Source: an uncultured Elusimicrobiaceae bacterium (GTDB lineage Bacteria; Elusimicrobiota; Elusimicrobia; Elusimicrobiales; UBA9959). Taken from it: a stretch of 47,976 nucleotides of DNA. Positions 6,559-34,158 of the stretch are shown here, in pieces. The stretch spans positions 1 to 47,976 of the forward strand of contig CAZPMW010000006.1 in NCBI GenBank assembly GCA_964587805.1, written 5' to 3'. The position numbers and the translations under genes were made by a program. The notes under the pieces are model-generated. The model did no database searches. It worked only from the letters and a program-made list of their open reading frames with translations, and was not told where the DNA came from. The number at the start of each line of letters is the position of its first letter. The stretch's first letter is position 1.

Positions 6559-6563
6559 GCTGG

Positions 6564-9111: not shown

Positions 9112-9175
9112 ATACTATAAATTAACTGCCGCCTCTCACAAGGACGCGAGTCCTGCTAAAAGGTATAATTTATAT

Positions 9176-10075: not shown

Positions 10076-10097
10076 ACGGGACAACAAGGAGCTTAAA

Positions 10098-11306: not shown

Positions 11307-11342
11307 AAGGGGACGTTGTTTACTTAATGACTATTTAGCAGA

Positions 11343-11426
11343 CAAAAGACTGGGGTCAAAAGACTGGGGTCAGGTCTTTACTTTTGACTTCTTCACCTAA
11401 GGTCAAGAATCAAGACCTGACCCCCA
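11343..11426. repeat. REP-like palindromic element with a 14-bp tandem duplication
   Basis: GGGGTCAGGTCTT (11366-11378) and AAGACCTGACCCC (11412-11424) form a perfect inverted repeat with inner TTGAC/GTCAA pairing; CAAAAGACTGGGGT occurs twice at 11343-11370. Confidence 0.75.
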
Positions 11427-11435
11427 TCTGGGCAT

Positions 11436-11572
11436 TTTACTCATGGGGGGGATTAGGGCTATAATATGGATACCCTAATGGGAGTGAGGCAAACTGGGGA
11501 GTTTTCGGGATTTTATCCAGAAAACAGGCGAAAGTAATGCGACAGTACGCTGTCGGGGTCCTGTGTTACGAT
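11436..11572 (+). promoter_or_regulatory. recA promoter region with two candidate promoters and operator-like palindromes
   Basis: TTTACT-18 bp-TATAAT (11436-11465); extended -10 TGtTACGAT (11564-11572); CGACAG-N4-CTGTCG (11540-11555). Confidence 0.45.
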
Positions 11573-11655
11573 ATATAGGAAAGGACCGGCAGCGGATACG
11601 GATTTTTGCGTTTCCCGCCGCGATGCCGGCGAAAATACGAACGGAGGACAAAACA

Positions 11656-12747: not shown

Positions 12748-12768
12748 TGTTCGTGCGGCCATCCCACG

Positions 12769-13734: not shown

Positions 13735-13737
13735 AAT

Positions 13738-15288
13738 ATGATAGACGAACGCGACGATGTTTTCGACTCTAAAATAACGCTGCATGACCGGCATCGGTTC
13801 GAGATCAAGCTGGATATGGACCTGGGCCTTGCCGCCCGCCCGGCATACGAGCTGGAAAGTTATTTTTTTGTGCCGCGCGCGCTTAATATCAGCCCGCGCA
13901 CATATACGAAAGAGGACTTTTACAATAGCAACCAGCGCTACATACGCTTCAAGACGCCCAGGATCAGCCTGTCCAAGCTCTGCGACCCGGAGCTCTCCAC
14001 TTCGCCGCTAAACCGCGTGAAAGACAATCTCTCCCGTATCCTCTCGGGTTCACAGGATACCGGGTTGGTCAACCAGGTCTACGACGAGTTCAAGCTGCTG
14101 GGCTGCGTGATCAGGGGAGAGATCCGGGACCATGTCAAGAGCCTTACGGCGGAACTTGCGGCCAGCGCCGCGCGGCCGGAAGAAAGCGGCGGGAAAGTGT
14201 TCCACGGAGAAAGCTTTACCGCTTTTCTCTCGGACCTGAAGCGCCTTATCGACACGATACACGTCCTTAAAGCGGAGGTCATGGACCCCGCGGTGCCGGT
14301 CAGGCTCAAAGACACCTATAAATTCCTTGACGAATATCTGAGCCTGATCATTGAGGAGTATCTGACGCCCTTGCTTGCGGTCCTGCGCGGGAGCAAGGCG
14401 GTTCTATCCGGTTTAAACGGCATTGAGGCGGATCTGTCCGCGCTGGTGCTTTCCCAGAGCCGTTACCGCGCGGCCATGGGATACCCGTCCATTCTCAGGG
14501 ACGGCGACAGCAACGAGGTCCTTATCTACCGGCGCGGCGTGCTTAAAAAATTTATCTACAGCGTGCTCTATCTTAAGACCGAGGTGGACGAATGGCAGGC
14601 CGCCACGCAGGTCGTGTTCGGCCTGGCTGCCGGGTTAGCGATGCTGTTCGCGGTGATGGCCGCTATCTACGCCCAAAGCCGCTATACCATGAACAGCGTG
14701 CCGTTCGTGGTGGTGATAGTGACCAGCTATATCTTTAAAGACCGCATCAAGGACTGGCTTAAACACCTGTTTTCCAGGAACCTCACACGCTGGTTTTCCG
14801 ACCGCGAGATAAAGATACTGGATCCGATCGATTCAAAAAAGATAGGCGTTCTTAAGGAAGCTTTCACTTTTATCACGGGAAAAGACGTGCCGCCGGATAT
14901 CGCGCGTTTTCGCAGTATTGATAACATCACATCCATAGACGAGGACGGCAATCCTGAGCGTGTTTTTAAATATAAAAAAGAGATAACGCTGTATCCCGGC
15001 CAGATCCTCAGGGCGCACAGCCGCCGCAAAGATCTCAATGATATCATGAGGTTCAATATAAAGGATTTTATCACGCAGGCCGACGATTCCAGCGTGGATT
15101 ATCAGTACGCGGACCCGGACACCGGCAGAATCCGCTCCGTCCCCTGCGCGCGGGTCTATCATCTTAACATGATCCTTAAATATTCATACTCCGCCGCTCA
15201 GGGACAGGAGAAGGTTCATTACGACCGCATCAGGATAGTCCTGAACAAAGAGGGCCTGGTCCGGCTGGAAGACGTGAAATTGTTCTGA
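13738..15288 (+). CDS. Hypothetical protein with a central 2-TM hairpin
   Basis: 516-aa ORF starting 3 nt after the xerD stop; two hydrophobic helices at about aa 290-335 between soluble domains. Confidence 0.8.
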   Translation: MIDERDDVFDSKITLHDRHRFEIKLDMDLGLAARPAYELESYFFVPRALNISPRTYTKEDFYNSNQRYIRFKTPRISLSKLCDPELSTSPLNRVKDNLSRILSGSQDTGLVNQVYDEFKLLGCVIRGEIRDHVKSLTAELAASAARPEESGGKVFHGESFTAFLSDLKRLIDTIHVLKAEVMDPAVPVRLKDTYKFLDEYLSLIIEEYLTPLLAVLRGSKAVLSGLNGIEADLSALVLSQSRYRAAMGYPSILRDGDSNEVLIYRRGVLKKFIYSVLYLKTEVDEWQAATQVVFGLAAGLAMLFAVMAAIYAQSRYTMNSVPFVVVIVTSYIFKDRIKDWLKHLFSRNLTRWFSDREIKILDPIDSKKIGVLKEAFTFITGKDVPPDIARFRSIDNITSIDEDGNPERVFKYKKEITLYPGQILRAHSRRKDLNDIMRFNIKDFITQADDSSVDYQYADPDTGRIRSVPCARVYHLNMILKYSYSAAQGQEKVHYDRIRIVLNKEGLVRLEDVKLF

Positions 15289-16449: not shown

Positions 16450-17517
16450 TCAGCTTTTGACTATCTCGCCGTCCACGCCGAAAATATAAGAGATTAGCGC
16501 GGCCCTGGCCCACATCCCGTTGCGCTCCTGCCGCCAGAAGACGGCCCGGGGGTCTTCATCCACGGAAACCTCGATCTCGTCGCGCCGCGGCAGCGGGTGC
16601 ATTATTACGCAGCTTTTCTTGATAAGCTTCAGATGTTCGGCTTTGAAATGGAACGGCGAATAATCCACCGCCTTTGATTCTCCGGCTTTGTCGTGTTCGT
16701 CCTGTATGCGCGTCATGTATATGGCGTCGGCCTCTCCCATGACGGACCTGAAATCCTCGGTTTCCATGAAGGGCATGTTGTGGCGTTTGAGGAAATCCAG
16801 AATATCGGCTTCCATCCGGAATTGTGCGGGTGAGACGAAACACAGCGAAATATTCTTATAGTTCCGCATCAGGTACGTGAGCGATCGCACGGTCCTGCCG
16901 CGCTTCAGGTCCCCGACCATAACGATCCTTTTATTGTCCATGTCGCCGTTAAAACTGCGGTACAGGGTGTACATGTCGAGAAGCGCCTGGGTCGGATGCT
17001 GATCTTTGCCGGACCCGCCGTTTATGATCGGCACCGGCCGGTTCGTGCGGTTCATGAGCCAGGCGGTCTTTTCCACAAAGCCGGGAGTAGGGTGGCGCAT
17101 TATTATCATGTCCACGTAGCTGGAAAAGGTGCGAACAGTGTCCTCCGGGCTTTCCCCTTTAACTTCCGAAGAGGTGGATGTGTCGCGTATCTCTGAGGTT
17201 TTGATGCCGAGAATATGGCAGGCGTTCAGGAATGAGAGGAAGGTCCTGGTGGACGGCTGGACAAAATATAGCATGGCGCGCGCGTGGGAAAGGAGGCTGC
17301 CGGCATAGTTCATGCCCTCCTTTTTCCGGGTGAGCCGGCGCAGGGCGTCGGTGGTTTCAAACAGATGGGTCAAAAGACCGCGGTCCAGCTGCTGGGCGAA
17401 AAGACAGTCGTAGAGCCTTCCGTTTTTGGCGAAAAAAGGCAATTTTTCCGAAATGCCTTTCTTGTAAAATCCATCCCAGTCGGAGCTTACGCTTGTCATT
17501 TCCTGGCTTCTTTCCAT
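16450..17517 (-). CDS. pyrB: Aspartate carbamoyltransferase catalytic chain
   Basis: PSTRT..SF, KGES.EDT, QHPTQALLD, GDLKRGRTVRSL, TRIQ.E and MHPLPR; SD AAGGAG; -10 TATAAT at 17560-17555 on the minus strand. Confidence 0.92.
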   Translation of the reverse strand: MERSQEMTSVSSDWDGFYKKGISEKLPFFAKNGRLYDCLFAQQLDRGLLTHLFETTDALRRLTRKKEGMNYAGSLLSHARAMLYFVQPSTRTFLSFLNACHILGIKTSEIRDTSTSSEVKGESPEDTVRTFSSYVDMIIMRHPTPGFVEKTAWLMNRTNRPVPIINGGSGKDQHPTQALLDMYTLYRSFNGDMDNKRIVMVGDLKRGRTVRSLTYLMRNYKNISLCFVSPAQFRMEADILDFLKRHNMPFMETEDFRSVMGEADAIYMTRIQDEHDKAGESKAVDYSPFHFKAEHLKLIKKSCVIMHPLPRRDEIEVSVDEDPRAVFWRQERNGMWARAALISYIFGVDGEIVKS

Positions 17518-21581: not shown

Positions 21582-22121
21582 ATGGAGCAGGTTATTCTGG
21601 ATGTTCGTGAGCAGGATGAATTCGCGGCCGAGCATGTGCCGGGGTCCATCTGGGTGCCGCTCTCGCAATTCAATCACTTTGCCCCCGGGGTCCTGCAGTC
21701 CCTGGTCGGCCGGCAGGTGCTGCTCATGTGCCGGAGCGGCAGCCGCGCGCGGCTTGCGGGTGAGCAGATCGATAAACTCGGTTTCAAAGGACAGATAGAA
21801 ATTTCCGTATTCGAGGGAGGGATACTGGAGTGGGTCAGGCAGGGGCGCCCCGTAGTTACCCGGAAGGCCGCCCATTTGTCCATACTGCGCCAGGTGCAGC
21901 TGATCGCCGGCCTGATAGTCCTGGTCTCCTCACTGCTAAGCGTTTACGCTGACCCGCGGATCGTATGGGCGGCGGCGTTCGTAGGGGCGGGTCTGACCTT
22001 TGCGGGTCTTACCGGATTCTGCGGACTCGCCCAGTTGCTTGCCGCCATGCCCTGGAATAAAACCAGGCCCGATAACGAAGAAGAGCTTTGCCGGGTAAGC
22101 CCTAAGTCCCCCGGTTGCTGA
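21582..22121 (+). CDS. Rhodanese plus DUF2892 membrane sulfurtransferase (YgaP-like)
   Basis: LDVRE.DEF..EHVPGS and CRSGSRA; C-terminal RQVQLIAG...GLTGFCGLA.LL..MPWN; SD AGGAGG. Confidence 0.9.
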   Translation: MEQVILDVREQDEFAAEHVPGSIWVPLSQFNHFAPGVLQSLVGRQVLLMCRSGSRARLAGEQIDKLGFKGQIEISVFEGGILEWVRQGRPVVTRKAAHLSILRQVQLIAGLIVLVSSLLSVYADPRIVWAAAFVGAGLTFAGLTGFCGLAQLLAAMPWNKTRPDNEEELCRVSPKSPGC

Positions 22122-22128
22122 CCAGGTG

Positions 22129-22539
22129 TCAGTCAGTGCCGCGCCGCGCTGTTTTAATATCGGAGCGGCGCTTTTTGCTTTCAAGGCGGCGCCGTCTGGA
22201 TGACCGGGACGGTCTAGTGGGCCTTCTGTATTTCGGGGGGAGAAGCGCGCGTTCAATCAGGTCCAGCAGCCTGGCGCGCGCGGCCTTCCGGTTCTGTTCC
22301 TGCGTGCGGTGTTCGCTGGCGGTTATCAGGATGTCTCCGTCCGCGGTCAGCTTGGACCCGGCCAGCAATTTAAGCCTCTCCTGCGCCGCGCAGGGCAATC
22401 CGGACAGCCAGGGGGAAAAGCGGAGCTGTACGGAGGTGGAGACTTTATTCACATTTTGTCCGCCGTGCCCTCCGGCCCGGATAAATTTCTCCTCAATGGA
22501 ACCTGGCGCCGGGAAAAAACCGCGGATATCATCAGCCAT
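22129..22539 (-). CDS. arfB: Alternative ribosome rescue peptidyl-tRNA hydrolase
   Basis: GGHGGQNVNKV, HRTQEQNR and a basic tail RRPTRPS..RRLESKK..K..R. Start reassigned to 22539. Confidence 0.93.
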   Translation of the reverse strand: MADDIRGFFPAPGSIEEKFIRAGGHGGQNVNKVSTSVQLRFSPWLSGLPCAAQERLKLLAGSKLTADGDILITASEHRTQEQNRKAARARLLDLIERALLPPKYRRPTRPSRSSRRRRLESKKRRSDIKTARRGTD

Positions 22540-22644
22540 ATATCTGTATATTACAAAAATCCGGGAGGCTCCGTGCTTCCTAGGCTCATCCGGTTGATTT
22601 GCCTGGCCGGATATTAATACCATACTTCAACGGATGGAGGAACA

Positions 22645-23832
22645 ATGGACCTTAAACAACTCAACACGGCCGTTTTAAAACACAGGAAGGAGATGATCGC
22701 TTTTGCGCGCGATCTTATACGCATCCCGAGCTTCTCCATGCAGGAAGGAGCCTTGGTGGAGCGCATCAAAAAAGAGATGATTAAGGCCGGCTTTGACAAG
22801 ATCAAGATAGACGCCATGGGCAACATCATAGGCTTCATCGGCAGCGGGAAAAAGAAGATCATGGTGGATGCCCACATCGATACCGTCGGCATAGGCGACA
22901 AGACAGCCTGGAAGATAGATCCGTTCGGGGGCGTGATAAAAAACGACGTCATTTACGGCCGGGGCGCCACAGACCAGAAACTTTCAATGGTTTCCATGGT
23001 ATACGCCGGCAAGCTGATAAAGGAGCTGAAGCTGTCCGGCGATTATACCTATATAGCCGTGGGCTCGGTGATGGAGGAGGATTGTGACGGCTTGCCGCTG
23101 CTGCATATCATTAACAAGGAAAAGATCAGGCCTGATTTCGTAGTGCTGACCGAACCGACCAATCTGGCGGTCTACCGCGGGCACCGCGGGCGCATGGAGA
23201 TAAAGGTGGTAACTAAGGGCCGTTCCTGCCACGCTTCAGCTCCGGAGCGGGGCGATAACGCCGTGGTTAAGATGTCTGAAATAATACAGCAGATCACGGC
23301 GCTTAACAAAAAACTCAAGAATGATAAATTCCTGGGCAAGGGAACCGTAGCCGTCACCTCGGTAGAGTGTAAAACCCCGTCACTGAACGCCGTGCCGGAC
23401 GAATGCACCGTCTATCTCGACAGGCGCCTTACGCTCGGAGAGACGCTCAGGTCTTCCGTGAACGAGATAAAGCGCCTGCCTGCGGTAAAAAAGACCGGCG
23501 CGAAAGTGGAAGTGCTTTACTACGACGCCACGGCCTGGACGGGTCTGAAGGTGGGGCAGGAGAAGTATTTCCCGACCTGGGTGCTTCCGGCAAATCATAA
23601 GCTGGTGCAGGCGGGCGTGAAAGCGGGCAGGATAGCGCTGGGCAAAAACCCGGTGGTGGACAAATGGGTGTTTTCCACCAACGGCGTGGCGACCGCCGGC
23701 AGGCTGAAGATCCCGACCATCGGCTTCGGCCCGTCAAATGAGATTTACGCGCATACCGTAAAAGAGAATATGCCGGTGTCCGACCTGCTGACCGCGGCCG
23801 TCTTCTACGCCGCCATACCCCAATACCTGTAG
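22645..23832 (+). CDS. ygeY: YgeY-family M20 metallo-amidohydrolase
   Basis: DAHIDTVG, GRGATDQ, EEDCDG, YRG.RGRMEI, CHASAPERGDNA, FLGKGT, YFPTW, W.FSTNGV and GFGP..E..AH, as in E. coli YgeY. Confidence 0.9.
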   Translation: MDLKQLNTAVLKHRKEMIAFARDLIRIPSFSMQEGALVERIKKEMIKAGFDKIKIDAMGNIIGFIGSGKKKIMVDAHIDTVGIGDKTAWKIDPFGGVIKNDVIYGRGATDQKLSMVSMVYAGKLIKELKLSGDYTYIAVGSVMEEDCDGLPLLHIINKEKIRPDFVVLTEPTNLAVYRGHRGRMEIKVVTKGRSCHASAPERGDNAVVKMSEIIQQITALNKKLKNDKFLGKGTVAVTSVECKTPSLNAVPDECTVYLDRRLTLGETLRSSVNEIKRLPAVKKTGAKVEVLYYDATAWTGLKVGQEKYFPTWVLPANHKLVQAGVKAGRIALGKNPVVDKWVFSTNGVATAGRLKIPTIGFGPSNEIYAHTVKENMPVSDLLTAAVFYAAIPQYL

Positions 23833-23866
23833 CCCTGAAATTGGAACGCAATAATCCTTTCCGGAA

Positions 23867-26098
23867 ATGCACATGACCACAGCGGGAGTCGCTCCCTCCA
23901 AGTCAGACAAAATAGAATGGTCCGATGCGTGGGGCGGGCTCGCGGCCATGCTGGTCGCTTTGCCCTCCGCAATAGCTTTCGGCGTGGCGATGTACGCCCC
24001 GCTCGGGCCAGGCTTCGCTGGAGCGGGAGCGCTTGCCGGAGTGCTGGGGACCGTGGCTATCGGGCTGATCGCCCCGGCGCTGGGGGGAGCCCCGCGCCTT
24101 ATCTCCGCCCCCTGCGCGCCGGCGGCGGCCGTCATGGCCGCGCTTTGCGCGGAACTGATAAGCGGAGGCGCGCCCGCCGAGCGCGTTATTGTCTCCCTCG
24201 CTTTAGTCGGTCTGTTCTCAGGCCTCCTGCAGACCATCTTCGGCGCGCTCGGCGGAGGGCGGCTGATCAAATACATTCCCTATCCGGTGGTGGCGGGCTA
24301 CATGAGCGGCGTCGGTTTAATGATAATGCTGAAACAGGCCGGCCCGTTCTTCGGGCTTGCGAAGGACGGCGGGACGCTCGCCGGCCTGCTTTCTCCAGCC
24401 TCCTGGCAATGGCCCGCGCTTAGCGTCGCCCTTGTCACCGTTTTGGTCACGCTCTGGGCTCCGCGCCTCACCAAACGGGTGCCGGCGTCCATACTCGGCC
24501 TCGCGGCCGGGATTCTGACGCATTTGGCCGCCGGCCTTTTGCGTCCGCAACTGCTTGCGCCGTTCGCTAATCCGTTCATTATCGGAGAGATCTCCACCAG
24601 CCCTGGCGCTGTTTTTAAAGGGATTGCCGCCAATTTCAGCGCGTTATCCATGCTGGGGCCGCATGATGTGTTTATGCTAGCGGGCCCTGCGCTCACGCTG
24701 GCGGTGCTTCTTTCGATCGATACTCTTAAAACCTGCGTGATCACGGATTCTATCGTCCGCTCGCGTCATAATTCTAACCGTGAGCTCGCTGGCCAGGGCG
24801 CCGGCAATATCGCTTCAGCGATGTTTGGCGGCATGCCGGGAGCGGGCACTTTAGGCGCGACCATGGTAAGCCTGGCGAGCGGCGGGCAAACCCGCGGCGC
24901 CGGCTTCCTGGAGGGCGTGTTCGCCCTGGTCGCGGCCCTCGTTCTTGGCGGCGCGATCGGGCGTATCCCGCTCGCGGCCCTGGCCGGATTATTGGCGGTG
25001 GTGGGCGCGCGGATGATAGACCGCTCCAGTCTGCGGCTTGCGCTGCGGCGGGCCACCATGCTGGATTTTGCAGTGGTAGTCTCGGTCGCCGGAACCGCGC
25101 TCATGGCGGATCTCATCATCGCCGCGGGTGTGGGGATAGCCCTCTCCATGCTCCTGTTCATCCGCGAGCAGATGCACAGCAGCGTGGTTCGGCGCAAAAC
25201 GACCGGGGCTGAGATATCCTCAAAGCAGCAGCGCCTGCCGCGTGAGCGCGAGGCGCTGGCGGCGCGTGGAGGAGAAACGCTTGTGGTAGAGCTGCAGGGC
25301 AGCCTCTTCTTCGGCACAACCGACCAGCTTTTTTCTGAAATAGAGAATGAGATGCGCTCGTGCAGGCGCCTCATCCTGGATATGCGCCGCGTAACGTCGG
25401 TCGATTTCACGGCCGCGCATATGCTGGCGCAGGTGGGCGAGACTCTGGCCGAATGCGGGGGCTCGCTTGCTTTTTCCCATCTGCCTCCGAGTCTGCCCAC
25501 CGGGCAGGACCTGGTCGCTTACCTCAGGCATATGGGGCTGACGCGCCGCGGCGGAGGAGGGCGGGTTTTCGAAACGCTTCACGACGCGCTTGAATGGGCG
25601 GAGGATCGTGTTTTGGACGAGGCGGGCATGGAGCGACCGGAGGCCGGGGAGCTGCTCGATCTTGCCAGGATAGATTTTTTGCGCGAGCTGGACCCCGCCT
25701 CCCTGGCAGGGCTGCGCGCGGCTTTTGTAGAGCGCAGGGCCGCTGCCGGCGCATCTATCTTCCGCCGCAAGGGGGAGGGAGATGAACTGTTCCTCATACG
25801 CCGCGGGTGCGTGCGCGTGGTTCTGCCGCTGAAGGACACGCACAGACATCATCATCTCGCCGTTTTCGGCCCCGGCGATTTCTTCGGGGAAGTCGCTTTC
25901 CTGACCCGCAAAGCGCGTACGGCCGACGCCATAGCTCTGAGCGATGCAGACCTTTATGTCATCACCCGGGCGGCCTTCGATGAGATCTCGCGCGTCACTC
26001 CCGCAGTCAGCGCGGCGTTCTTTCAGCGCCTGGCCACCGTTGAAGCTCTGCGGCTGCGCGATGCGGACAGGGAATTGCGCCGCCTGCAGGACAGCTGA
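23867..26098 (+). CDS. SulP/SLC26 anion permease with STAS and cNMP-binding domains
   Basis: VALPSAIAF, IPYPVVAGY and NRELAGQG.GN; STAS LQGSLFFGT..DMRRV..VD; cNMP cassette FFGEVAFL...RTADA. Confidence 0.92.
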   Translation: MHMTTAGVAPSKSDKIEWSDAWGGLAAMLVALPSAIAFGVAMYAPLGPGFAGAGALAGVLGTVAIGLIAPALGGAPRLISAPCAPAAAVMAALCAELISGGAPAERVIVSLALVGLFSGLLQTIFGALGGGRLIKYIPYPVVAGYMSGVGLMIMLKQAGPFFGLAKDGGTLAGLLSPASWQWPALSVALVTVLVTLWAPRLTKRVPASILGLAAGILTHLAAGLLRPQLLAPFANPFIIGEISTSPGAVFKGIAANFSALSMLGPHDVFMLAGPALTLAVLLSIDTLKTCVITDSIVRSRHNSNRELAGQGAGNIASAMFGGMPGAGTLGATMVSLASGGQTRGAGFLEGVFALVAALVLGGAIGRIPLAALAGLLAVVGARMIDRSSLRLALRRATMLDFAVVVSVAGTALMADLIIAAGVGIALSMLLFIREQMHSSVVRRKTTGAEISSKQQRLPREREALAARGGETLVVELQGSLFFGTTDQLFSEIENEMRSCRRLILDMRRVTSVDFTAAHMLAQVGETLAECGGSLAFSHLPPSLPTGQDLVAYLRHMGLTRRGGGGRVFETLHDALEWAEDRVLDEAGMERPEAGELLDLARIDFLRELDPASLAGLRAAFVERRAAAGASIFRRKGEGDELFLIRRGCVRVVLPLKDTHRHHHLAVFGPGDFFGEVAFLTRKARTADAIALSDADLYVITRAAFDEISRVTPAVSAAFFQRLATVEALRLRDADRELRRLQDS

Positions 26099-26101
26099 AC
26101 G

Positions 26102-27481
26102 ATGAAACGCGCCCGCACCAAAAAAGCGGAGCCCCTCGTCAGGGAGATTCCCTACGCGGAGCCGGTTAGCCTGGCGGCGCGGCTCGCCGGGCAAAAACAT
26201 CTTACCCTGCTGGACAGTTCCATGCGCCATCCGCTGCTTGGGCGCTATTCCTATCTGTCCTGTGACCCTGTCGCCTCGCTCATTGTCCGCGACGGAGTGA
26301 CGACCTGGAACGGGAAGACCAGGGCCGCACCGGCGCTGAGCGCGCTGGACAAAATTCTGGCTGAGAATCGCACCGTGCACCTGAAGGGGCTGCCGCCTTT
26401 TCAGGGCGGGTTTATGGGCTATATCGGCTATGAATTCGGCCGGGTTCTGGAGCCGCGCGCCCGCATGCCAAAATGGCCTGCCCTGTGTCCGGAGCTCATG
26501 CTGCATCTATACGATGTGGTCGCGGCGTTCGACCATAAACGGAAGAGGGCCTTTATCGTATCGACAGGGCTTATGGGCCGGGATGCCGCCGCCAGGGCGG
26601 ACCGCTTTGAAAAAATGTTGTCGGCGGATCCGCCGCCTCCGGGGCTTGGAGTGATAAAGGGATGGCGCTCTAATTTCACGCGGGCGCGGTTCGAAGCCGC
26701 CGTGAAGCGGACGATCGGCTATATTTTAGCAGGCGATGTTTTTCAGGCCAATATCTCGCAGCGCTTCAGCGCCCCCATACCGGATAAATTCGACGCCTTC
26801 TCTTTCTATCGCCGGCTGCGCGCGGTGAACCCGGCGCCTTTTTCCGCGTTTTTAGATTACGGCGTGCTTGCCGTCGCCTCAAGCTCTCCGGAACGGCTTG
26901 TCAGTTTTGACGGCCGTTTCACGGAGGCCCGCCCAATCAAAGGCACGCGCCGGCGGGAAGCCGACCCGATGCGGGACGCGGCGCTTACCGCCGAGCTGCT
27001 GGCGAGCGGCAAGGACCTGGCGGAGAACGTAATGATAGTGGACCTTCTGCGGAACGACTTCTCGCGGGTCTGTGACCCGGGGTCCGTCACCGTCCCGGTC
27101 CTGTGCGGGCTGGAGAGCTATGCGTCAGTTCATCATCTTACCTCGGTAGTCAGAGGCCGGCTGTCGCTGAACCGTACGCGCGGAGATCTGCTGGGAGCCT
27201 GCTTTCCGGGAGGCTCCGTCACCGGCGCGCCGAAGATCAGGGCGATGGAAGTGATCGGGGAGATAGAAAAATGTCCGCGGGGAATTTATTGCGGCTCTAT
27301 CGGCTTCATCGGGGCGAGCGGCCCGATGGATTTCAATATAGCTATCAGAAGCGTTATGTTCGCGGACGGCGCAGCAAATTTTCAGGGCGGCGGCGGGATC
27401 ACGGCGCGCTCCGAACCGGCCGCTGAGTATGAGGAAACTCTTGCGAAGATCGAGCGGGTCCGTGAGGCTTTTACCCGATGA
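26102..27481 (+). CDS. pabB: Aminodeoxychorismate synthase component I
   Basis: PFQGG..GY..YE, SSSPERL, RPIKGT (PabB-type Lys), KD.AENVMIVDLLRND and FPGGSVTGAPK. Confidence 0.9.
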   Translation: MKRARTKKAEPLVREIPYAEPVSLAARLAGQKHLTLLDSSMRHPLLGRYSYLSCDPVASLIVRDGVTTWNGKTRAAPALSALDKILAENRTVHLKGLPPFQGGFMGYIGYEFGRVLEPRARMPKWPALCPELMLHLYDVVAAFDHKRKRAFIVSTGLMGRDAAARADRFEKMLSADPPPPGLGVIKGWRSNFTRARFEAAVKRTIGYILAGDVFQANISQRFSAPIPDKFDAFSFYRRLRAVNPAPFSAFLDYGVLAVASSSPERLVSFDGRFTEARPIKGTRRREADPMRDAALTAELLASGKDLAENVMIVDLLRNDFSRVCDPGSVTVPVLCGLESYASVHHLTSVVRGRLSLNRTRGDLLGACFPGGSVTGAPKIRAMEVIGEIEKCPRGIYCGSIGFIGASGPMDFNIAIRSVMFADGAANFQGGGGITARSEPAAEYEETLAKIERVREAFTR

Positions 27482-28035
27482 TCCTGATAATTGATAATCA
27501 CGACTCTTTCGTGTACAATATCGCGCGCTACTTTGAGGAGCTGGGCGCGCGCACGCGCGTGAGACGGCATGAGGAGCTTTCCCGGATCGACCTTAAGATG
27601 ACCGCCATGGTTATATCTCCTGGACCCTGCGCGCCGCGAGAAGCGGGCCGCTCTATGAGCCTGCTGCGCCGCTTCTCCGGGCGGGTGCCGATCCTGGGCG
27701 TCTGTCTGGGGCATCAATGCGTGGGAGAGGCTTTTGGCGGAAAAGTAGTCCGCGCGAGACGGCCGCTGCACGGCGACTCTTCGCGCATCTTTCATAACGG
27801 AAGCGGACTTTTCGCCGGGATACCGGACGGATTCAGGGCCGGCCGCTACCATTCCCTGATAGTGGAAGAGGCAGGCGCTGACCTGGAAGTTACGGCGCGC
27901 TCGGAGGAGGGTGAGATCATGGCTTTAAGGCACCGGTCGCAGCCGACCTATGGGGTGCAGTTCCATCCTGAGTCAATTCTTACGGAGCATGGCTATGACC
28001 TTCTTCGCAACTTTCTGAAGGAAGTGAAAGTATGA
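27478..28035 (+). CDS. pabA: Aminodeoxychorismate/anthranilate synthase glutaminase component II
   Basis: IDNHDSF, SPGPC.P, GVCLGHQ, RYHSL and QFHPES; ATGA overlap with pabB. Confidence 0.9.
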   Translation: MILIIDNHDSFVYNIARYFEELGARTRVRRHEELSRIDLKMTAMVISPGPCAPREAGRSMSLLRRFSGRVPILGVCLGHQCVGEAFGGKVVRARRPLHGDSSRIFHNGSGLFAGIPDGFRAGRYHSLIVEEAGADLEVTARSEEGEIMALRHRSQPTYGVQFHPESILTEHGYDLLRNFLKEVKV

Positions 28036-28892
28036 AAGTACGGTTCGCCGGGCAGGATTGCCCCGGCTATCTGCCTATGGACCCGGGAGAGCGGGGGCTG
28101 TTGCTTGGGGACGGCGTTTTTGAGACCATTCTGGCGCTCGACGGAAGGCCGGTCTGGCTGCCCGATCACCTGGACCGCCTGCTGGCCGGCGTTTCAGTTT
28201 TTGGCCTGAAGGCTGAGAGGACGCAGCTGGAACGGGAAGCCCTCGCGGTAATCGGCCCTGAGCCGGGAATTATTCGCCTGACCGTTATGCGCGGCGCGGG
28301 CCCCCGCGGCCTGGCGGCCGGCGGCCCGCAGGCGGCGCCGGTTCTGGCTACTTTCTACCCGTTGCCCGCCGCCACGATCCGCGCACCGGTGCGGCTTGCG
28401 GTTTCTTCCGTGCGGCGCAACGAGGGCTCTCCCGCGGCGCGCCTTAAAACTCTTTCGTACGCGGACAATATCCTGGCTGCCCGTGAAGCTGTTTCGCGCG
28501 GAGCCGACGACGCCCTGATGCTGAATAATGCCGGAAGCGTGGCATGTGTCAGCGCGGGGAATATCTTCGCTATCAGTGGCTCAAAGCTCCTCACCCCGCC
28601 CTGCTCCGACGGTGTCCTGGCCGGTATCGCGCGCAAGCATATCCTGGCGTGCGCCGGCCGGCTTGGCCTGGACCCGGCCGAAGGGCCGTTGAGGGTGGAA
28701 GATCTGACTGCGGCCGACGCTGTCTTTATGACCAACAGCCTGCGGCTGGTCAGCCCCGTTACGGAGCTGGACGGGGTCGCTCTTAAGCGCAAAGCCGGCG
28801 CTGTTATTGAGCGGATATTCGCTGAGTTATGCAAAAGCGTGCTTTCAGAGACGGGCCGTGATCCGCGGAGCCTTGCGGCGCCAGGTATTTAA
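28032..28892 (+). CDS. pabC: Class IV PLP enzyme, probable 4-amino-4-deoxychorismate lyase
   Basis: RGLLLGDGVFET, LKTLSY, L.GI.R and TNSL; coupled to pabA. Confidence 0.75.
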   Translation: MKVRFAGQDCPGYLPMDPGERGLLLGDGVFETILALDGRPVWLPDHLDRLLAGVSVFGLKAERTQLEREALAVIGPEPGIIRLTVMRGAGPRGLAAGGPQAAPVLATFYPLPAATIRAPVRLAVSSVRRNEGSPAARLKTLSYADNILAAREAVSRGADDALMLNNAGSVACVSAGNIFAISGSKLLTPPCSDGVLAGIARKHILACAGRLGLDPAEGPLRVEDLTAADAVFMTNSLRLVSPVTELDGVALKRKAGAVIERIFAELCKSVLSETGRDPRSLAAPGI

Positions 28893-28992
28893 TGGCCGCG
28901 GCCCCGGCGCATTATAGAGTAGCCGCGGAAAAGTGATAAAATAACCAGACAGGCGCAGTATCTGATATTTCAGGCAGGAGGCTTAGCCGTTT

Positions 28993-30006
28993 ATGAAATC
29001 AATGCTCAGAGGAAAGGATTGGATCGAAACAGTGGACTGGACCAAAGAGGAGCTGGAAACGGTTCTGGAAGTGGCTAAATACCTTAAAATAAAATTTTCC
29101 CTGGGAGAGGCGCACAGGATACTGCAGGACAAGACCCTGTTTATGATGTTCTTCGAGCAGTCTACGCGCACCAGAAATTCCACCGAGGCCGCCATGACCC
29201 AGCTGGGAGGCCACGCCCATGATCTGACCCCGGATAAGATGCAGATATCCCACGGTGAGACGCCTAAGGATACCGGTAAGGTGCTTTCCCGCTACGGCCA
29301 CGGGGTCGCAATCCGCAACTGCTTCTATGGAACCGGAAATAAATACATACGCGAAGTCGCCAAAGAAGCCGATATCCCGGTCACTAACCTTCAGTGCGAC
29401 GTCGACCATCCCTGCCAGTCCATCGCCGACCTTATGACCATGCAGGAAAAATTCGGCACTAATCTCAAAGGCATGAAATGCGTGGTCTCCTGGACCTACG
29501 CCCCGGCATACGCCCGTCCGCTCTCGGTACCACAGGGCCTTATCACTCTGTTGCCCCGCTTCGGCGTGGATGTGACGCTGGCTTACCCGAAAGAGTTCAA
29601 CCTTATACCGAGAACCATGGACGACGCGCAGAGGTTCGCCAAAGACACCGGCGCAAAATTCAAGGTTACTCACAATATGGACGAAGCGTTCAGGGGCGCG
29701 CACATCGTTTATCCAAAATCCTGGGGCTGCCATCAATATCTGAAGGATATTAATGTGCCGGAAGCCGACAAGAAAGACACCGGCATGAAGATAATCGCCA
29801 AGAATAAGAACTGGGTCTGCACCGAAAAACGCATGAAGCTGGCGCATAAGGACGCCGTTTACATGCACCCGCTTCCGGCAGACCGCGGCGCGGAAGTGGA
29901 GGACGCCGTGATAGACGGGCCCCAGAGCGTGGTTTTCGACCAGGCCGAGAACAGGCTGCACACGGTCAAGGCCATCCTCGCGCTGATCATGGGCGGCAGA
30001 CCGTAG
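28993..30006 (+). CDS. YgeW-related carbamoyltransferase (ATCase/OTCase family)
   Basis: STRT, QISHGET, NLQCDVDHPCQ, PLSVPQG, YPKSW, HPLPADRG and QAENRLH; own extended -10 TGaTAAAAT 28934-28942 and SD GGAGG. Confidence 0.85.
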   Translation: MKSMLRGKDWIETVDWTKEELETVLEVAKYLKIKFSLGEAHRILQDKTLFMMFFEQSTRTRNSTEAAMTQLGGHAHDLTPDKMQISHGETPKDTGKVLSRYGHGVAIRNCFYGTGNKYIREVAKEADIPVTNLQCDVDHPCQSIADLMTMQEKFGTNLKGMKCVVSWTYAPAYARPLSVPQGLITLLPRFGVDVTLAYPKEFNLIPRTMDDAQRFAKDTGAKFKVTHNMDEAFRGAHIVYPKSWGCHQYLKDINVPEADKKDTGMKIIAKNKNWVCTEKRMKLAHKDAVYMHPLPADRGAEVEDAVIDGPQSVVFDQAENRLHTVKAILALIMGGRP

Positions 30007-30056
30007 CGCCCGCTTTTTACCGGGCCCGCCATACGGGTCCGATCCGGCCCCTGTCT

Positions 30057-30095
30057 CCGGCGCGGGACGGGCCTGCGCTGTCCGCGCCGGTTTTT
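30057..30095 (+). terminator. Intrinsic terminator-like hairpin
   Basis: CCGGCGCGG(G)AC / GTCCGCGCCGG followed by TTTTT. Confidence 0.6.
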
Positions 30096-30129
30096 ATTGT
30101 AATAGTCGCCAGCACCTTGTGGAGGCAGC

Positions 30130-31239
30130 ATGAAACGGATAAGAATATTCGCTTTTGGCGGAAATGAAGTGTCACCAGCTGGGCTTAAGGATCCCGGGAC
30201 CGGGAAAAGCATCAATCCGGATATAGCCATGCAGTGGCAGCGCACGGCTGAGACCGCAAAGCTCGTGGCGGACATCTTCGAGAAATATCCCGACGACCTT
30301 TACGTCCTGACACATGGGAACGGGCCGCAGGTGGGCAATGTGCTTATGCGCGCGGAGCTGTGCCGGGACACCCTCCCGCCCCTGCCCCTGGACGTATGCG
30401 TCTCTGACACCCAGGGAGCCATGGCCTATATGCTCGCCGAGCTGAATAACGAGCTGAACATCCGCGGCATCGACAATATAGTTACCGGAATAGTCACGCA
30501 GGTGGTTGTTGACAAAGACGATCCGGATTTTAAGAATCCGTCCAAATACATCGGACCCTCGTATTCCGGGGAAGAGGCTGAAAAGCGCACCAAAGATAAC
30601 GGCTGGGTGATGAAACTTTATAAAAAAGACGAAAAAGGCGCCGATATCTGGCGGCGCGTGGTTCCTTCTCCCGTGCCATCTGATATCGTTGAGATAGACG
30701 CTATCGAGGCGTTGCTGGCGAAGGGGATAGTCCCGATAACTGTAGGAGGCGGCGGTATCCCGGTGCGGGAAGTCACCCCGGAAATCAATGCCGGCGCCGA
30801 AGTATACCACTGCAACTACGGCGTGCGGTTCTCCAAAAAACATAAGCCCGGTTCAAAACCGCTCAAAATGTACACCGGAGTTGAGGCAGTTATAGACAAG
30901 GACCTGGCGTCCGCCCTGCTGGGCACGATGCTCCTGAAGCGCGCGAAGACGCGCGGGGAGGAACTGGAGGTCACGCTTACGATATTTACCGGCGAGGACG
31001 GCGCCAAGCTGAACTACCAGAAGCCGGGTCAGACCGACCTGCGCAAGCTTACCCTTGCGGAGCTGGAAGAGCTTTACTCGCGCAAGCCCTGCCCGTTTCC
31101 GCCAGGCAGCATGGGGCCGAAGGTAAAAGCGGTCATAGAATTCCTGAAGGGCGGCGGTCATGCGGCGTTCATCACCAGGACAGATCTGTTCGACGAGACT
31201 TTAAGCGGCCGGGCCGGCACCACGGTGGTGCGCGGATAA
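30130..31239 (+). CDS. arcC: Carbamate kinase (ArcC/YqeA family)
   Basis: AFGGN, THGNGPQVG, P.K.IGP, WRRVVPSP.P, GGGGIPV, EAVIDKD and GSMGPK. Confidence 0.92.
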   Translation: MKRIRIFAFGGNEVSPAGLKDPGTGKSINPDIAMQWQRTAETAKLVADIFEKYPDDLYVLTHGNGPQVGNVLMRAELCRDTLPPLPLDVCVSDTQGAMAYMLAELNNELNIRGIDNIVTGIVTQVVVDKDDPDFKNPSKYIGPSYSGEEAEKRTKDNGWVMKLYKKDEKGADIWRRVVPSPVPSDIVEIDAIEALLAKGIVPITVGGGGIPVREVTPEINAGAEVYHCNYGVRFSKKHKPGSKPLKMYTGVEAVIDKDLASALLGTMLLKRAKTRGEELEVTLTIFTGEDGAKLNYQKPGQTDLRKLTLAELEELYSRKPCPFPPGSMGPKVKAVIEFLKGGGHAAFITRTDLFDETLSGRAGTTVVRG

Positions 31240-31245
31240 AGGTTT

Positions 31246-32484
31246 ATGAAAAAGATCAAGACATTGCAGTGTATAAATTGCGGCAGGGATCACAAGCTTG
31301 CCGAAGTGAAGTACACCTGCGCTTCATGCGGCGGAAATCTTCAGGTTATTTACGATTATACCCTCATAAAAAAACGCCTCAATTACGAGGTTTTAAAGGA
31401 TAACCACGACCGGACGCTATGGCGGTATATGGATATTCTGCCGCTTTCGGGGTTTAAAATGATCCCGCCGGTGCAGGTCGGCTGGACGCCTCTTTACAAG
31501 GCGGAAAGGCTCGGCTCCGGAGTCGGGGTTCCCAACCTTTATATAAAAGACGACGGGCGCAATCCCAGCGCTTCTTTCAAGGACCGCGCCAGCGCCGTGG
31601 TAATAGCCAGGGCGCGCGAGCTAAAGGAAAAAGTTGTGACCTGCGCTTCCACGGGCAACGCCGCCTCCTCCCTGGCCTGCCTTACCGGCAGCCTGGACCT
31701 GAGGACTGTTATCTTTGTTCCGGAAACCGCGCCGGCCCCCAAAGTGGCCCAGCTGTTGGTATTCGGCGCCACAGTGATCATGGTCAAAGGAACTTACGAC
31801 GCAGCCTTCGACCTTTGCCTGAAGGCAGCGGCTGAATACGGCTGGTACAATCGCAGCACCGGGGTGAATCCCTTTACACGCGAGGGCAAGAAAACCTGCG
31901 CGTTCGAGATCTGTGAGCAGATGAAGTGGGAAACTCCGGACAAGGTGTTTGTTCCGGTGGGCGACGGCAATATTATAAGCGGAATGTGGAAGGGATTCGT
32001 GGAGTTCCACCGTCTGGGCATCATAGAAAAACTTCCGCAGATGATCGCGGTGCAGGCTGAAAAATCAGATGCCGTGAAGAGGGCTTTTGAATCGGGGGGG
32101 GACATCCAGCCGGTTTCCGGAGAGACCGTCGCCGACAGCATTTCCGTCAGTACTCCGCGCGACGGCATGGCCGCGGTACTGGCTATTCGCGACTCGCAGG
32201 GGTTCGCCCTTACCGTCACCGACGCGGAGATCCTGGCGGCGATACCCGATGTAGCCAGGGGTTCCAACGTTTTCGCCGAGCCGGCGGCCGCCGCCACTTA
32301 CGCGGGTCTTAAAAAAGCCGTAGCGGAAGGCAGAGTGAAGGATAACGAATCCGTGGTTCTGCTTATAACCGGGAACGGGCTGAAAGATATTGCCAGCGCC
32401 ATGAGATCTGCCGGCCAGCCCTTCGTTATCCAGCCGGATATGGCTGAGCTGCGGAAGCTGGTCGCGTTAAATAAGCTGGCGTAG
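31246..32484 (+). CDS. Threonine synthase-like fold-type II PLP enzyme (function may differ from ThrC)
   Basis: N-terminal CxxC..CxxC; NPSASFKDR (PLP Lys), ASTGNAA, PVGDG, EPAAA and TGNGLKD. Confidence 0.8.
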   Translation: MKKIKTLQCINCGRDHKLAEVKYTCASCGGNLQVIYDYTLIKKRLNYEVLKDNHDRTLWRYMDILPLSGFKMIPPVQVGWTPLYKAERLGSGVGVPNLYIKDDGRNPSASFKDRASAVVIARARELKEKVVTCASTGNAASSLACLTGSLDLRTVIFVPETAPAPKVAQLLVFGATVIMVKGTYDAAFDLCLKAAAEYGWYNRSTGVNPFTREGKKTCAFEICEQMKWETPDKVFVPVGDGNIISGMWKGFVEFHRLGIIEKLPQMIAVQAEKSDAVKRAFESGGDIQPVSGETVADSISVSTPRDGMAAVLAIRDSQGFALTVTDAEILAAIPDVARGSNVFAEPAAAATYAGLKKAVAEGRVKDNESVVLLITGNGLKDIASAMRSAGQPFVIQPDMAELRKLVALNKLA

Positions 32485-32548
32485 CTCCGCTTCATGAGCT
32501 TTGGCTGTGAATTTAACCGGCGCCGGAGCTGATCGCGGAGCGCGCAAG

Positions 32549-32568
32549 GCCCGGGGGTATTCCCGGGC
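32549..32568. terminator. Hairpin between convergent genes
   Basis: GCCCGGG-ggtatt-CCCGGGC; no clear U-tract. Confidence 0.4.
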
Positions 32569-32595
32569 GTTCAAAATATAATCCTATAAGAGAGT

Positions 32596-34158
32596 TTAAA
32601 GCGGCAGGACGATGGTAAAAGCAGAGCCCTTCTGCAGCTGGGACTTGGCGTAAACGCTGCCCCCGTGTATTTCCGCTACTTTTTTAACGAGGGCTAGGCC
32701 CAGCCCCCAGCCTTCCACCTGGCCGGTGAAAGAGGCTTCCACCTGATAGAATTTGTTAAAGATGTTGGCTATCTCCTCACCGGGGATGCCGGGGCCGTTG
32801 TCTCCCACCGAAATAAGAACATGTCCGTCCTTGGCCTGCGCCGAGAGGATTACCAGCTTGTCCTTATTGGGGTTGAACTTGACCGCGTTGTCCACAAGGT
32901 CTTTTAAAGCGTTTATAAGCATCGCCTTGTCGGCGTTTACTTTAAGCGGCTCCGGCATGACCACCTTGAACGTAAGAGAGGGTACGTCCTGGAAGCGAAG
33001 TTTTATAAGCTTTACCGTTTCGCCCAGCAATTCGGTGATGTCGCACTCGGTCTTGTTCAGGCCTGTCTTGTCCAGATTGTCTATGGTCACAAAATCCAGC
33101 AGGCTGTCCACCAGGGCGGATAGCTTGGCTCCCTGCCCCATAATGGTGGCTGCGGATTTTTTTACCAGCTCCGGCAGATTCTTGGAGGCGGCTTCATCAT
33201 TGAGTATCTGGGAATAGCCGTTGATAGAAGCCAGAGGAGTTTTGAATTTATGTGACATAAGGGACAGGACGTTCCTGGCCATGCACTCCTCTATCTTCTG
33301 GGCCGTCACATCCCCCAGTATCCAAAGCCAGCCCTCCATTGTGGAGTTGCCTTCTTTGTCTTCCGTGCGGAGCTTGATAGCTGAGCCGTCCAGATACAGC
33401 TTCTTGGGCTTCTCGCGCATGACTTCGAAGCGGACCGCCGGAGAATCCGACTGCATTATCTGGTCGACAGGCGGCTTCACTGAAAAATTCTCCAGCGCCT
33501 GGCGGATATCGGAGAAATGGAATTTCTCGTATTCCAGGTAAAGCCTGGCGGATTGATTAAGTAGGAGTATTTCGCCGTCGGGGTTGGTCAATACCGCCCC
33601 TTCCTTGATGCGTTTGAATACTATCTCCAGTTTGCGCTTCTCTTCCTTTACTGAAGAGAAGAGCCTGGAGTTCTCTATGGCGATGGCCGCCTGCGAAGCG
33701 AAGGCCTCGAAATTATTTTTATCCGCGTCCACAAAATCGCCATCCGCCTTGTTTATGGCCTGGACCACGCCTATCACCTTACCCTTGATTATCATGGGAC
33801 AGGTCAGGAGCGCGCGTGTCTCGAACCCGCTCTTGTTGTCAACTTTCCTGGCGTGCCGGGGATCGCTGGTGACGTCGTTTATGATAAGGGAGCGCCCTTC
33901 CTTGGCGCAGGTCCCGGCGATGCCCTCGCCGATTTTGAAGCGCATTTTTTGTACGTCTTCCGGCAGGCCTAAGGCGACGTCGAAATAAAGCTCCTGGGCC
34001 TTTTCATCCAGCAGGTACAGGGACGCCCTCTCGGCGCCCACAACGCGCGAGGCAAGGCGCATGATGGTAAGGAGGAGTTCGGAGATATCAAGTTTAGAGG
34101 ATAAAAGCCTGGAGACCATCACCAGCATCTCTAGGCTTTCCTGTGACTGCATTGTCAT
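32596..34158 (-). CDS. Soluble GAF-PAS sensor histidine kinase
   Basis: GAF domain (GEGIAG, GVVQAINK), PAS-like middle, H-box SHKFKTPL, N-box DNAVKF, DNGPGI and GLGL; no TM segments. Confidence 0.9.
   Translation of the reverse strand: MTMQSQESLEMLVMVSRLLSSKLDISELLLTIMRLASRVVGAERASLYLLDEKAQELYFDVALGLPEDVQKMRFKIGEGIAGTCAKEGRSLIINDVTSDPRHARKVDNKSGFETRALLTCPMIIKGKVIGVVQAINKADGDFVDADKNNFEAFASQAAIAIENSRLFSSVKEEKRKLEIVFKRIKEGAVLTNPDGEILLLNQSARLYLEYEKFHFSDIRQALENFSVKPPVDQIMQSDSPAVRFEVMREKPKKLYLDGSAIKLRTEDKEGNSTMEGWLWILGDVTAQKIEECMARNVLSLMSHKFKTPLASINGYSQILNDEAASKNLPELVKKSAATIMGQGAKLSALVDSLLDFVTIDNLDKTGLNKTECDITELLGETVKLIKLRFQDVPSLTFKVVMPEPLKVNADKAMLINALKDLVDNAVKFNPNKDKLVILSAQAKDGHVLISVGDNGPGIPGEEIANIFNKFYQVEASFTGQVEGWGLGLALVKKVAEIHGGSVYAKSQLQKGSAFTIVLPL

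Follow-up and report, generated by a model that had tools for sequence, protein, structure and literature searches.

The anaerobic degradation of uric acid was solved in 2025 in Escherichia coli and Clostridium (PMC12507026; bioRxiv 10.1101/2025.04.24.650524). In the pathway set out in the main texts of these reports, HyuA yields 2,3-diureidopropionate, YgeW removes one of its ureido groups with phosphate, YqeA uses the resulting carbamoyl phosphate to form ATP, YgeY removes the other ureido group, and YgeX converts diaminopropionate to pyruvate and ammonia. The main text of PMC12507026 also describes a C. difficile variant with the amidohydrolase UacY in place of YgeW and UacX in place of YgfK, a precedent for the replacement of single steps in this pathway. 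Here we describe a locus on a stretch of 47,976 nucleotides, hereafter the window, from an uncultured Elusimicrobiaceae bacterium (GenBank assembly GCA_964587805.1, contig CAZPMW010000006.1, our contig C6). We propose that this region probably specifies the lower half of the reductive (2,8-dioxopurine) uric-acid pathway, in which ureido groups are cleaved and ATP is formed, with an enzyme resembling threonine synthase (ThrC-like) as its terminal lyase. Whereas the first ureido cleavage and the reductase are replaced in C. difficile, the replaced step here would be the last one, which depends on pyridoxal phosphate (PLP). The host assembly is an Elusimicrobiales metagenome-assembled genome of 2.40 Mb in 209 contigs, with a completeness of 96.4%.

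An earlier note on this DNA, made from the letters alone, had placed a YgeY, a YgeW-like carbamoyltransferase, a carbamate kinase and a fold-type II PLP enzyme in a single orientation within 10 kb, and all four are recovered there on the forward strand:

22645..23832, forward strand: YgeY-family M20 hydrolase (NF009555, 548.4 bits against a cut-off of 321; TIGR03526, 545 bits)
28993..30006, forward strand: short YgeW-related carbamoyltransferase (CT), 337 amino acids (OTCace_N and OTCace)
30130..31239, forward strand: carbamate kinase (CK), 369 amino acids (arcC, 248.2 bits against a cut-off of 358, in two stretches)
31246..32484, forward strand: ThrC-like fold-type II PLP enzyme, 412 amino acids (PALP, 247.9 bits; PRK08197, 309.6 bits against a cut-off of 303)

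The window YgeY is 52% identical to its E. coli counterpart and stands well over the family cut-off, and the ThrC-like gene begins 6 nucleotides past the stop codon of CK. With the E. coli clusters ygeW-ygeX-ygeY-hyuA-yqeA and ygfK-ssnA-ygfM-xdhD the host shares YgeY, a YgeW-related CT, CK, SsnA, a hydantoinase and Xdh-type subunits, together with the same principle, phosphorolysis first and substrate-level ATP formation after it. It differs from them in having a ThrC-like protein for YgeX, a short CT and a fusion reductase of 776 amino acids, in the spread of its genes over several contigs, and in that selD was not found.

We then examined the gene neighborhoods of CT homologs across species genomes, the close homologs being from Elusimicrobiales metagenome-assembled genomes. 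An alignment of these homologs led to 80 loci with flanks of up to 10 kb, whose CTs are 58-97% identical to that of the window, and which were mapped by tblastn with eight window proteins and 31 E. coli proteins as queries. They come from more than 10 phyla, including Elusimicrobiota, Verrucomicrobiia, Wallbacteria, Riflebacteria, Cloacimonadota, Armatimonadetes, several families of Bacillota, Latescibacterota, Krumholzibacteriia, Atribacterota, Chloroflexota, Gemmatimonadota, Thermoplasmata and others. Across these 80 loci CK is present in 49, YgeY in 44 (with a YgeY ortholog directly upstream of CT in 37), a ThrC-like gene in 32 (called at identity of at least 43% and coverage of at least 70%), Xdh subunits in 26, SsnA in 15, HyuA in 12, and YqeB, YqeC or MocA likewise in 12; YgeX occurs in none, and neither do arg, thr or car genes. 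In 72/80 loci CT has one or more additional urate-pathway genes within 10 kb, the other eight all being truncated loci (1.7-16 kb), and in 35/80 it has at least one of SsnA, HyuA, Xdh and the molybdenum-cofactor genes within that distance. Among the 44 loci with full flanks the corresponding counts are 30 for CK, 28 for YgeY, 27 for the ThrC-like gene, 21 for Xdh, 13 for SsnA and 10 for HyuA. The grouping of the four genes is thus more than chance, and the four families are linked in relatives from over 10 phyla.

The phyletic pattern within the host phylum was drawn from a sample of 151 Elusimicrobiota genomes, the members of which are interrelated, so that the counts are not independent. SsnA scores over its cut-off in 25 of them, and all 25 carry a ThrC-like gene, called here at identity of at least 45% with a match beginning within the first eight residues and found in 48 of the 151 overall. 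The short CT is present in 12, every one of which belongs to the SsnA carriers and has the ThrC-like gene. YgeX was found in 0/151, the control matching in E. coli only. In the host itself the best match to the YgeX model NF006058 is the ThrC-like gene, with 50.8 bits against a cut-off of 276, and this gene is also the only match to the E. coli YgeX query (26% identity over 174 residues). No canonical ygeX over the cut-off was therefore found in the host, in the 151 Elusimicrobiota genomes or in the 80 CT loci.

A search of the host genome for ygeX, hyuA, ssnA, ygfK, xdh and selD recovered SsnA, Xdh, YgfK/PreA-like and hydantoinase genes on contigs C59, C45 and C26, and neither ygeX nor selD. 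The earlier note had observed that HyuA, SsnA, YgfK and Xdh are absent from the window, which is correct as far as the window goes, but counterparts are present on these other contigs. SsnA on C59 scores 533 bits (cut-off 444) and is 34% identical to the E. coli protein. Beside it a profile scan places Xdh-type molybdenum, iron-sulfur and FAD subunits, an XdhC-type factor and MocA, to which tblastn adds YqeB, GuaD-like and Xdh pieces on this contig; an 8-oxoguanine-deaminase-like protein also came up in the profile scans of C59 and C26. Directly upstream of SsnA (locus L089, 7847-10177, forward strand) lies the gene for the 776-amino-acid protein, a fusion of a GltD/YgfK-N-like part with a PreA/dihydroorotate-dehydrogenase-like part, which looks like a hybrid of the dearomatizing reductases YgfK and UacX. 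Contig C45 carries XdhABC-like genes detected by tblastn, and C26 a D-hydantoinase (403 bits, cut-off 393) that is HyuA-like, with 35% identity. The best selD match in the host reaches 57 bits against a cut-off of 125; we note that a host without selD over the cut-off still has SsnA and Xdh-type genes of a kind that is associated with selenium-dependent hydroxylases. The conserved linkage to urate genes and the upper-half genes in the host together support the suggestion that the organism runs the ureido pathway of E. coli ygeW-ygeX-ygeY-hyuA-yqeA, or a related one.

The CT falls under the cut-off of every NCBIfam model: 251.7 bits against 453 for YgeW (NF005538), 233.5 against 500 for TIGR03316, 250.5 against 280.85 for ornithine carbamoyltransferase (OTC, TIGR00658), 232.5 against 288 for AOTC and 221.2 against 500 for PTC. 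It is 37% identical to E. coli YgeW, with 337 against 396 amino acids. In an alignment the two share the motifs QIxHGE, QCDxxHP, WxYxPSYxxPxSVPQ and YPKSW, at the sites of which E. coli ArgI differs, and the CT has KSWG and MHPLPAD where the OTC motifs, which we take to be SMG and HCLP, would be expected. Absent from it are three internal insertions of YgeW and the extension at the YgeW C terminus. A tree of 48 sequences places the short CTs in a group of their own (23 rows, SH-aLRT 90), which together with canonical YgeW (five rows, 100) and two module-linked CT groups makes up a 32-row clade (100) apart from the ArgI-like and PyrB-like enzymes. The CT thus shares motifs, clade and neighborhood with the knotted carbamoyltransferase YgeW (NF005538/TIGR03316), but differs from it in its sub-cut-off scores, its missing insertions and extension and its separate group, which agrees with the prior description of a transferase with a YgeW signature from a different subfamily. 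The host has two carbamoyltransferases, this short CT and a PyrB-like enzyme considered below.

Besides the 80 CT loci we examined 12 extra loci from Elusimicrobiota. In four of these, from sister genera of the same family (L122, L124, L131 and L133), CK and the ThrC-like gene have near them a canonical YgeW with 63-69% identity to that of E. coli. In genomes G091 and G119 (L122 and L124) this YgeW is 68-69% identical to the E. coli protein, while the accompanying CK and ThrC-like proteins are 76-81% and 76-83% identical to those of the window; G022 and G066 likewise have canonical YgeW near CK and the ThrC-like gene. Sister genera therefore carry one transferase or the other. This swap of YgeW and the short CT within one neighborhood is our strongest indication that the short CT performs the function of YgeW, and from it we infer that the two are isofunctional. 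Two other loci, L130 (G037, 6244-13929) and L132 (G112, 4872-10172), have two or three different CT paralogs adjoining CK and the ThrC-like gene, and L132 has no YgeY; in such loci both ureido groups may be cleaved with phosphate.

The CK aligns to the solved kinases 1e19, 1b7b and 2e9y, and its residues 37-213 and 249-367 match the P. furiosus enzyme 1e19, with an insertion of about 35 amino acids at residues 214-248 relative to the solved kinases. Its score below the TIGR00746/arcC cut-off (248.2 against 358) is due to this insertion; the stretches THGNGPQVG, GGGGIPV, VIDKDLA and GSMGPKV are all kept, and identity to E. coli YqeA is 33%. The CKs of the closer Elusimicrobia loci are 62-91% identical to that of the window.

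The ThrC-like protein is the sole member of the ThrC family in the host, the second match, at 21.9 bits, being CysK; the E. coli ThrC query is too distant to find this gene, so that the corresponding search is uninformative. A structural model of it, built on 23 clade members, has a pLDDT of 92 and a pTM of 0.92, and a fold search with this model returned threonine synthases as the best matches, followed by other fold-type II enzymes, as expected. To the short bacterial threonine synthases (2zsj, 2d1f, 6cgq and 1uim) it is 33-36% identical, with TM-scores of 0.84-0.86 normalized to the target, and it keeps the PLP lysine motif SFKDR as well as ASTGN. It departs from them in an additional N-terminal CxxC...CxxC ribbon of about 58 amino acids, in the replacement of canonical motifs, in its placement in a separate clade, and in a host where no homoserine pathway was found. 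With the 2,3-diaminopropionate ammonia-lyase YgeX/DpaL (NF006058) it has in common the fold type (a fold-type II PLP enzyme) and the same place in the cluster, but it belongs to a different family.

A tree of 52 sequences unites all 45 ThrC-like proteins, 33 linked to a short CT and 12 from Elusimicrobiota without one, in a single clade (SH-aLRT 99), to which neither the three canonical ThrCs nor the four other ThrC-family paralogs of the same genomes belong. One subclade (28 rows, SH-aLRT 100) comprises Elusimicrobiota, Riflebacteria and Atribacterota; a second (16 rows) comprises Bacillota, Latescibacterota, Krumholzibacteriia and Gemmatimonadota, with a Verrucomicrobia sequence beside it. 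Traits common to the clade are the N-terminal CxxC...CxxC ribbon, S[FLY]KDRAS and ASTGNAASS, together with GWYNR followed by [ST]xxxNPxx[RV]EGKKT where canonical enzymes have NSxNPxR[IL]EGQKT, and VGDG[NC] where they have VGNAGN. The canonical motifs are replaced in 33/33 ThrC-like rows compared with three canonical paralogs and three solved ThrCs. In the second subclade there is no Arg at either position of the former motif, whereas in the first, the Elusimicrobia subclade, the Arg is shifted one residue later (NPFTREG). The loss of the canonical Arg and the gain of an invariant Asp (D240) would fit a beta/gamma substituent that is no longer anionic but neutral or cationic. Three further ThrC-family paralogs without the canonical ThrC motifs, two of which have a comparable Cys ribbon at the N terminus, were encountered in loci L102, L103 and L104 (genomes G002, G004 and G003, respectively); their identity to the window protein is 31-32%, and comparable matches of 34-39% occur in many Elusimicrobiota.

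The surrounding genome leaves little for an ordinary CT or ThrC to do. E. coli queries for ArgG, ArgH, ArgB, ArgC, ThrB and DapB have no match in the host at E <= 1e-4; homoserine dehydrogenase was not found there, with a control that matched 14/14 genomes; homoserine kinase stays below the cut-off (thrB, 56 against 168 bits; TIGR02535, 20.5 against 446); and no arginine deiminase family member was found. Because the arg, hom and thrB genes were not found, there is no arginine pathway needing an OTCase and no O-phosphohomoserine route needing a threonine synthase. That the transferase is something other than an ordinary anabolic OTCase, as had been supposed, is in keeping with this lack of ArgG, ArgH, ArgB, ArgC and CarB matches in the host and with its clading with YgeW. 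What is established here is which families the genes belong to, that their linkage to urate genes is conserved, and that YgeX and the pathways for arginine and threonine are lacking. Apart from the ThrC-like protein, two screens of the host with hidden Markov models (HMMs) found CysK and an operon TrpB as fold-type II PLP enzymes, and no dehydratase of the IlvA/TdcB type appears in two PALP-family screens.

Based on these observations we posit the following route. The upper half, encoded on other contigs (an Xdh-type molybdoenzyme, the YgfK/PreA-like reductase, SsnA and the hydantoinase), would deliver 2,3-diureidopropionate, from which the YgeW-related CT would cleave one ureido group with phosphate to give carbamoyl phosphate. 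CK would transfer the phosphate of the latter to ADP, yielding ATP, while YgeY would hydrolyze the other ureido group of the C3 intermediate to leave 2,3-diaminopropionate. Finally, the ThrC-like PLP enzyme, rather than YgeX, would remove the beta-substituent to give pyruvate and ammonia. Its substrate would be either diaminopropionate or albizziin, the latter with loss of urea. The chemistry of CT, CK, YgeY and the YgeX step would be that of the E. coli and Clostridium papers, carried over by analogy. We propose the ThrC-like protein as terminal lyase because the step still to be filled calls for a PLP enzyme whose substrate is an amino acid bearing a nitrogen substituent at the beta position, and it is the only uncommitted one of the right fold in the host. 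The non-orthologous lyase imagined at the outset in place of YgeX therefore stands as regards the missing YgeX and the distinct ThrC-like clade found in its position; its lyase activity is a prediction.

The cluster-linked ThrC-like genes of other lineages were considered in five genomes (those of L060, L064, L078, L081 and L030). Four of these have a separate ThrC over the TIGR00260 cut-off, and the fifth has one at 166.1 against 167.1 bits; the separate ThrCs reach no more than 36% identity to the window protein, against 43-50% for the cluster-linked copies, and YgeX over the cut-off is found in none of the five. Among the open reading frames beside the ThrC-like gene in L060, L064, L073, L078, L081 and L087, a second PALP enzyme occurs only in L073. 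There, in Atribacterota (5765-7576, forward strand), genes for a RidA-family protein, a DUF6917 protein and a 332-amino-acid PALP enzyme lie directly upstream of a ThrC-like/YgeY/CT run; this trio was not recovered from the host, from the remaining 79 CT loci or from the 12 extra ones. In L064, the urate cluster of Halothermothrix, a serine hydroxymethyltransferase gene (11074-12333, forward strand) lies directly downstream of CT.

An alternative that we regard as unlikely would keep CT, CK and YgeY in the urate pathway and make the ThrC-like protein a lyase or synthase of wider or other specificity, which stands beside CK through operon history. It could act in serine/threonine deamination, as a phospho-lyase, or in threonine synthesis from salvaged precursors, with the diaminopropionate step being taken by another enzyme or the product being excreted. 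Several observations weigh against the terminal-lyase assignment, most of them by favoring such a role. The protein passes the cut-offs of two threonine synthase models (TIGR00260, 234.3 against 167.1 bits; PRK08197, as listed above). It is kept in 23 of the 126 SsnA-negative Elusimicrobiota genomes, namely 22 small ones (1.2-1.7 Mb) of one family and G123, which has the CK and ThrC-like pair without SsnA or a short CT. In the SsnA-negative loci L126 and L127 its neighbors are unrelated (nusB, DNA ligase and oxaloacetate decarboxylase), and tblastn finds no pathway genes in L128 and L129. Given this retention in SsnA-negative genomes, its role may well extend beyond urate. In the canonical ThrC of Thermus the Asn-Ser and Arg presumably grip the substrate phosphate, and phosphate binding could persist in the Elusimicrobia subclade because of its shifted Arg. 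We looked at five Elusimicrobiales genomes that have the ThrC-like gene as their sole ThrC-family gene, and in one of them, the SsnA-negative G071, it could act as a threonine synthase because that genome has two homoserine dehydrogenase genes. The lack of an IlvA/TdcB-type enzyme would leave a niche for a general deaminase. In addition, the two halves of the module sit on separate contigs, and the gene absences in the host are those of a draft assembly and fall short of proof.

Set against this alternative, the ThrC-like gene accompanies SsnA in all 25 SsnA-positive genomes of the Elusimicrobiota sample, in none of which YgeX was found, and its 32 occurrences within 10 kb of CT often take the form of a contiguous ThrC-like/YgeY/CT run. 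The tested genomes of other lineages also own a canonical ThrC. Homoserine dehydrogenase is missing not only from the host but also from four of the five relatives (G091, G119, G016 and G075), and the host yielded no second candidate for the final step. We infer that the ThrC-like enzyme does the YgeX step.

A quite improbable alternative is that CT and CK break down a non-purine ureido compound such as citrulline, carbamoylputrescine or oxalurate, in the manner of the arginine or agmatine deiminase pathways or of the oxamate transcarbamylase route, the proximity of YgeY being coincidental. The CT indeed lies below the YgeW cut-off with a practically equal OTC score (250.5 against 251.7 bits), its relatives are named ornithine or N-acetylornithine carbamoyltransferase in databases, and an ArgI-like OTCase adjoins a CK and ThrC-like pair in G127. 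This last gene (L123, 4908-5909, reverse strand), from a sister genus, encodes an ArgI-type enzyme 65% identical to E. coli ArgI and is divergent from the pair. However, YgeY, CK, the ThrC-like gene, SsnA, HyuA, Xdh or molybdenum-cofactor genes occur in 72/80 CT loci, the CT falls with YgeW rather than with ArgI-like enzymes in the fully supported 32-row clade, and YgeW-type motifs replace the OTC ones. The arginine deiminase pathway has the same reversed transferase working with phosphate, followed by CK and ATP, but it was rejected for this host, in which no arginine deiminase family gene was found, whose CT lies outside the OTC clade and whose module has purine-pathway neighbors. Finally, the notion that these are housekeeping genes, an anabolic OTCase and the cell's threonine synthase with CK between them, is hardly credible and was rejected, for although CT and the ThrC-like gene are the sole OTC-like and ThrC-family genes of the host and have recA, xerD, guaBA and pur genes around them, no ArgG, ArgH, ArgB, ArgC, ThrB or CarB match and no arg or hom gene was found, homoserine kinase stays below the cut-off, and both proteins lie outside the canonical clades.

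Four co-oriented genes, unrelated to the module and unmentioned by the earlier note, lie between YgeY and CT:

23867..26098, forward strand: SulP permease fused to STAS and cNMP_binding (Pfam Sulfate_transp, STAS and cNMP_binding), passenger
26102..27481, forward strand: pabB, an aminodeoxychorismate synthase gene (Chorismate_bind; NCBIfam PabB-type), passenger
27478..28035, forward strand: pabA, an aminodeoxychorismate synthase gene (GATase; NCBIfam PabA-type), passenger
28032..28892, forward strand: pabC-like aminodeoxychorismate lyase gene (Aminotran_4; NCBIfam PabC-type), passenger

The junctions within this block (23867-28892) are overlapping or 4 nucleotides long, and the block stands between YgeY and CT in the window and in L009 alone (1/80 loci). 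In L010, the CT of which is 95% identical to that of the window, YgeY lies directly before CT with no gene between, and three other unrelated open reading frames separate CT from CK. Since L010 is without genes between YgeY and CT, the SulP-pabBAC block is a recent passenger insertion outside the module. A promoter and terminator scan of 22000-33000 gave nothing that defines transcription units. The remainder of the window is core chromosome, with lnt, recA, xerD, a PyrB-like gene, guaB, guaA, purC, purL, purQ, purF and purD. At 2669-3940 and 4163-5437 (forward strand) are tandem paralogs with a weak clostripain-like match of 62-66 bits against a cut-off of 550.

One of these core genes touches on the fate of carbamoyl phosphate:

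16450..17517, reverse strand: PyrB-like aspartate carbamoyltransferase (TIGR00670, 251.4 bits against a cut-off of 237)

CarB was found neither in the host, with the E. coli query, nor in 19/21 genomes of its family, where a control matched 14/14; two family members do carry CarB. PyrB-like and PyrF genes are found in the host, and the E. coli PyrE query gave no match there. In five Elusimicrobia loci (L014, L016, L019, L027 and L037) a PyrB-like gene is found no more than 10 kb from CT, and in the window the distance is 11.5 kb. We tentatively regard the PyrB-like enzyme of this host, in which CarB was not found, as a possible user of carbamoyl phosphate. In an added role that does not exclude urate breakdown, and which we view as possible if doubtful, CT, a reversed CK or both would feed carbamoyl phosphate to this enzyme for pyrimidine synthesis in place of a carbamoyl-phosphate synthetase. 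The lack of CarB in most of the family, the presence of PyrB-like and PyrF genes and the recurrent proximity of PyrB-like genes to CT are consistent with this, whereas the undetected PyrE, the restriction of the CT-PyrB linkage to one lineage and the two CarB-bearing family members argue against it.

The pathway is known; what differs here is a short sister subfamily of YgeW and a ThrC-derived family in the place of YgeX. The neighborhood survey described in the main text of PMC12507026 scored YgeX by PF00291 near SsnA and YgeW by PF00185, criteria that would lump both variants together. The terms "threonine synthase" and "ThrC" are absent from the main texts of PMC12507026 and bioRxiv 10.1101/2025.04.24.650524, and the former term, the only one searched there, is absent from the 2008 SelD paper (PMC2276186). 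Nothing relevant was found in literature linking threonine synthase to ssnA or ygeY, a coverage that excludes most subscription journals, and among the papers from 2025 onward listed for dioxopurine, yanthine or diureidopropionate none is, by title or abstract, about a ThrC-like replacement.

We would tentatively, and with somewhat less than even confidence, go further and propose that the ThrC-like proteins, which annotation models now label threonine synthase, descend from that enzyme but make up a new family, which performs the last, pyruvate-forming step of anaerobic urate breakdown as a diaminopropionate or albizziin lyase in Elusimicrobiota and at least 10 other phyla lacking YgeX, in a module that also feeds pyrimidine synthesis in the CarB-less lineage. 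If this is true, the survey criteria merge two different enzyme families, and many genes labeled as threonine synthase or ornithine carbamoyltransferase would be misnamed, distorting predictions of amino-acid prototrophy. It would also mean a new reaction specificity among PLP enzymes, present in many environmental phyla, and, in the lineage without CarB, a breakdown of purines that feeds the synthesis of pyrimidines.

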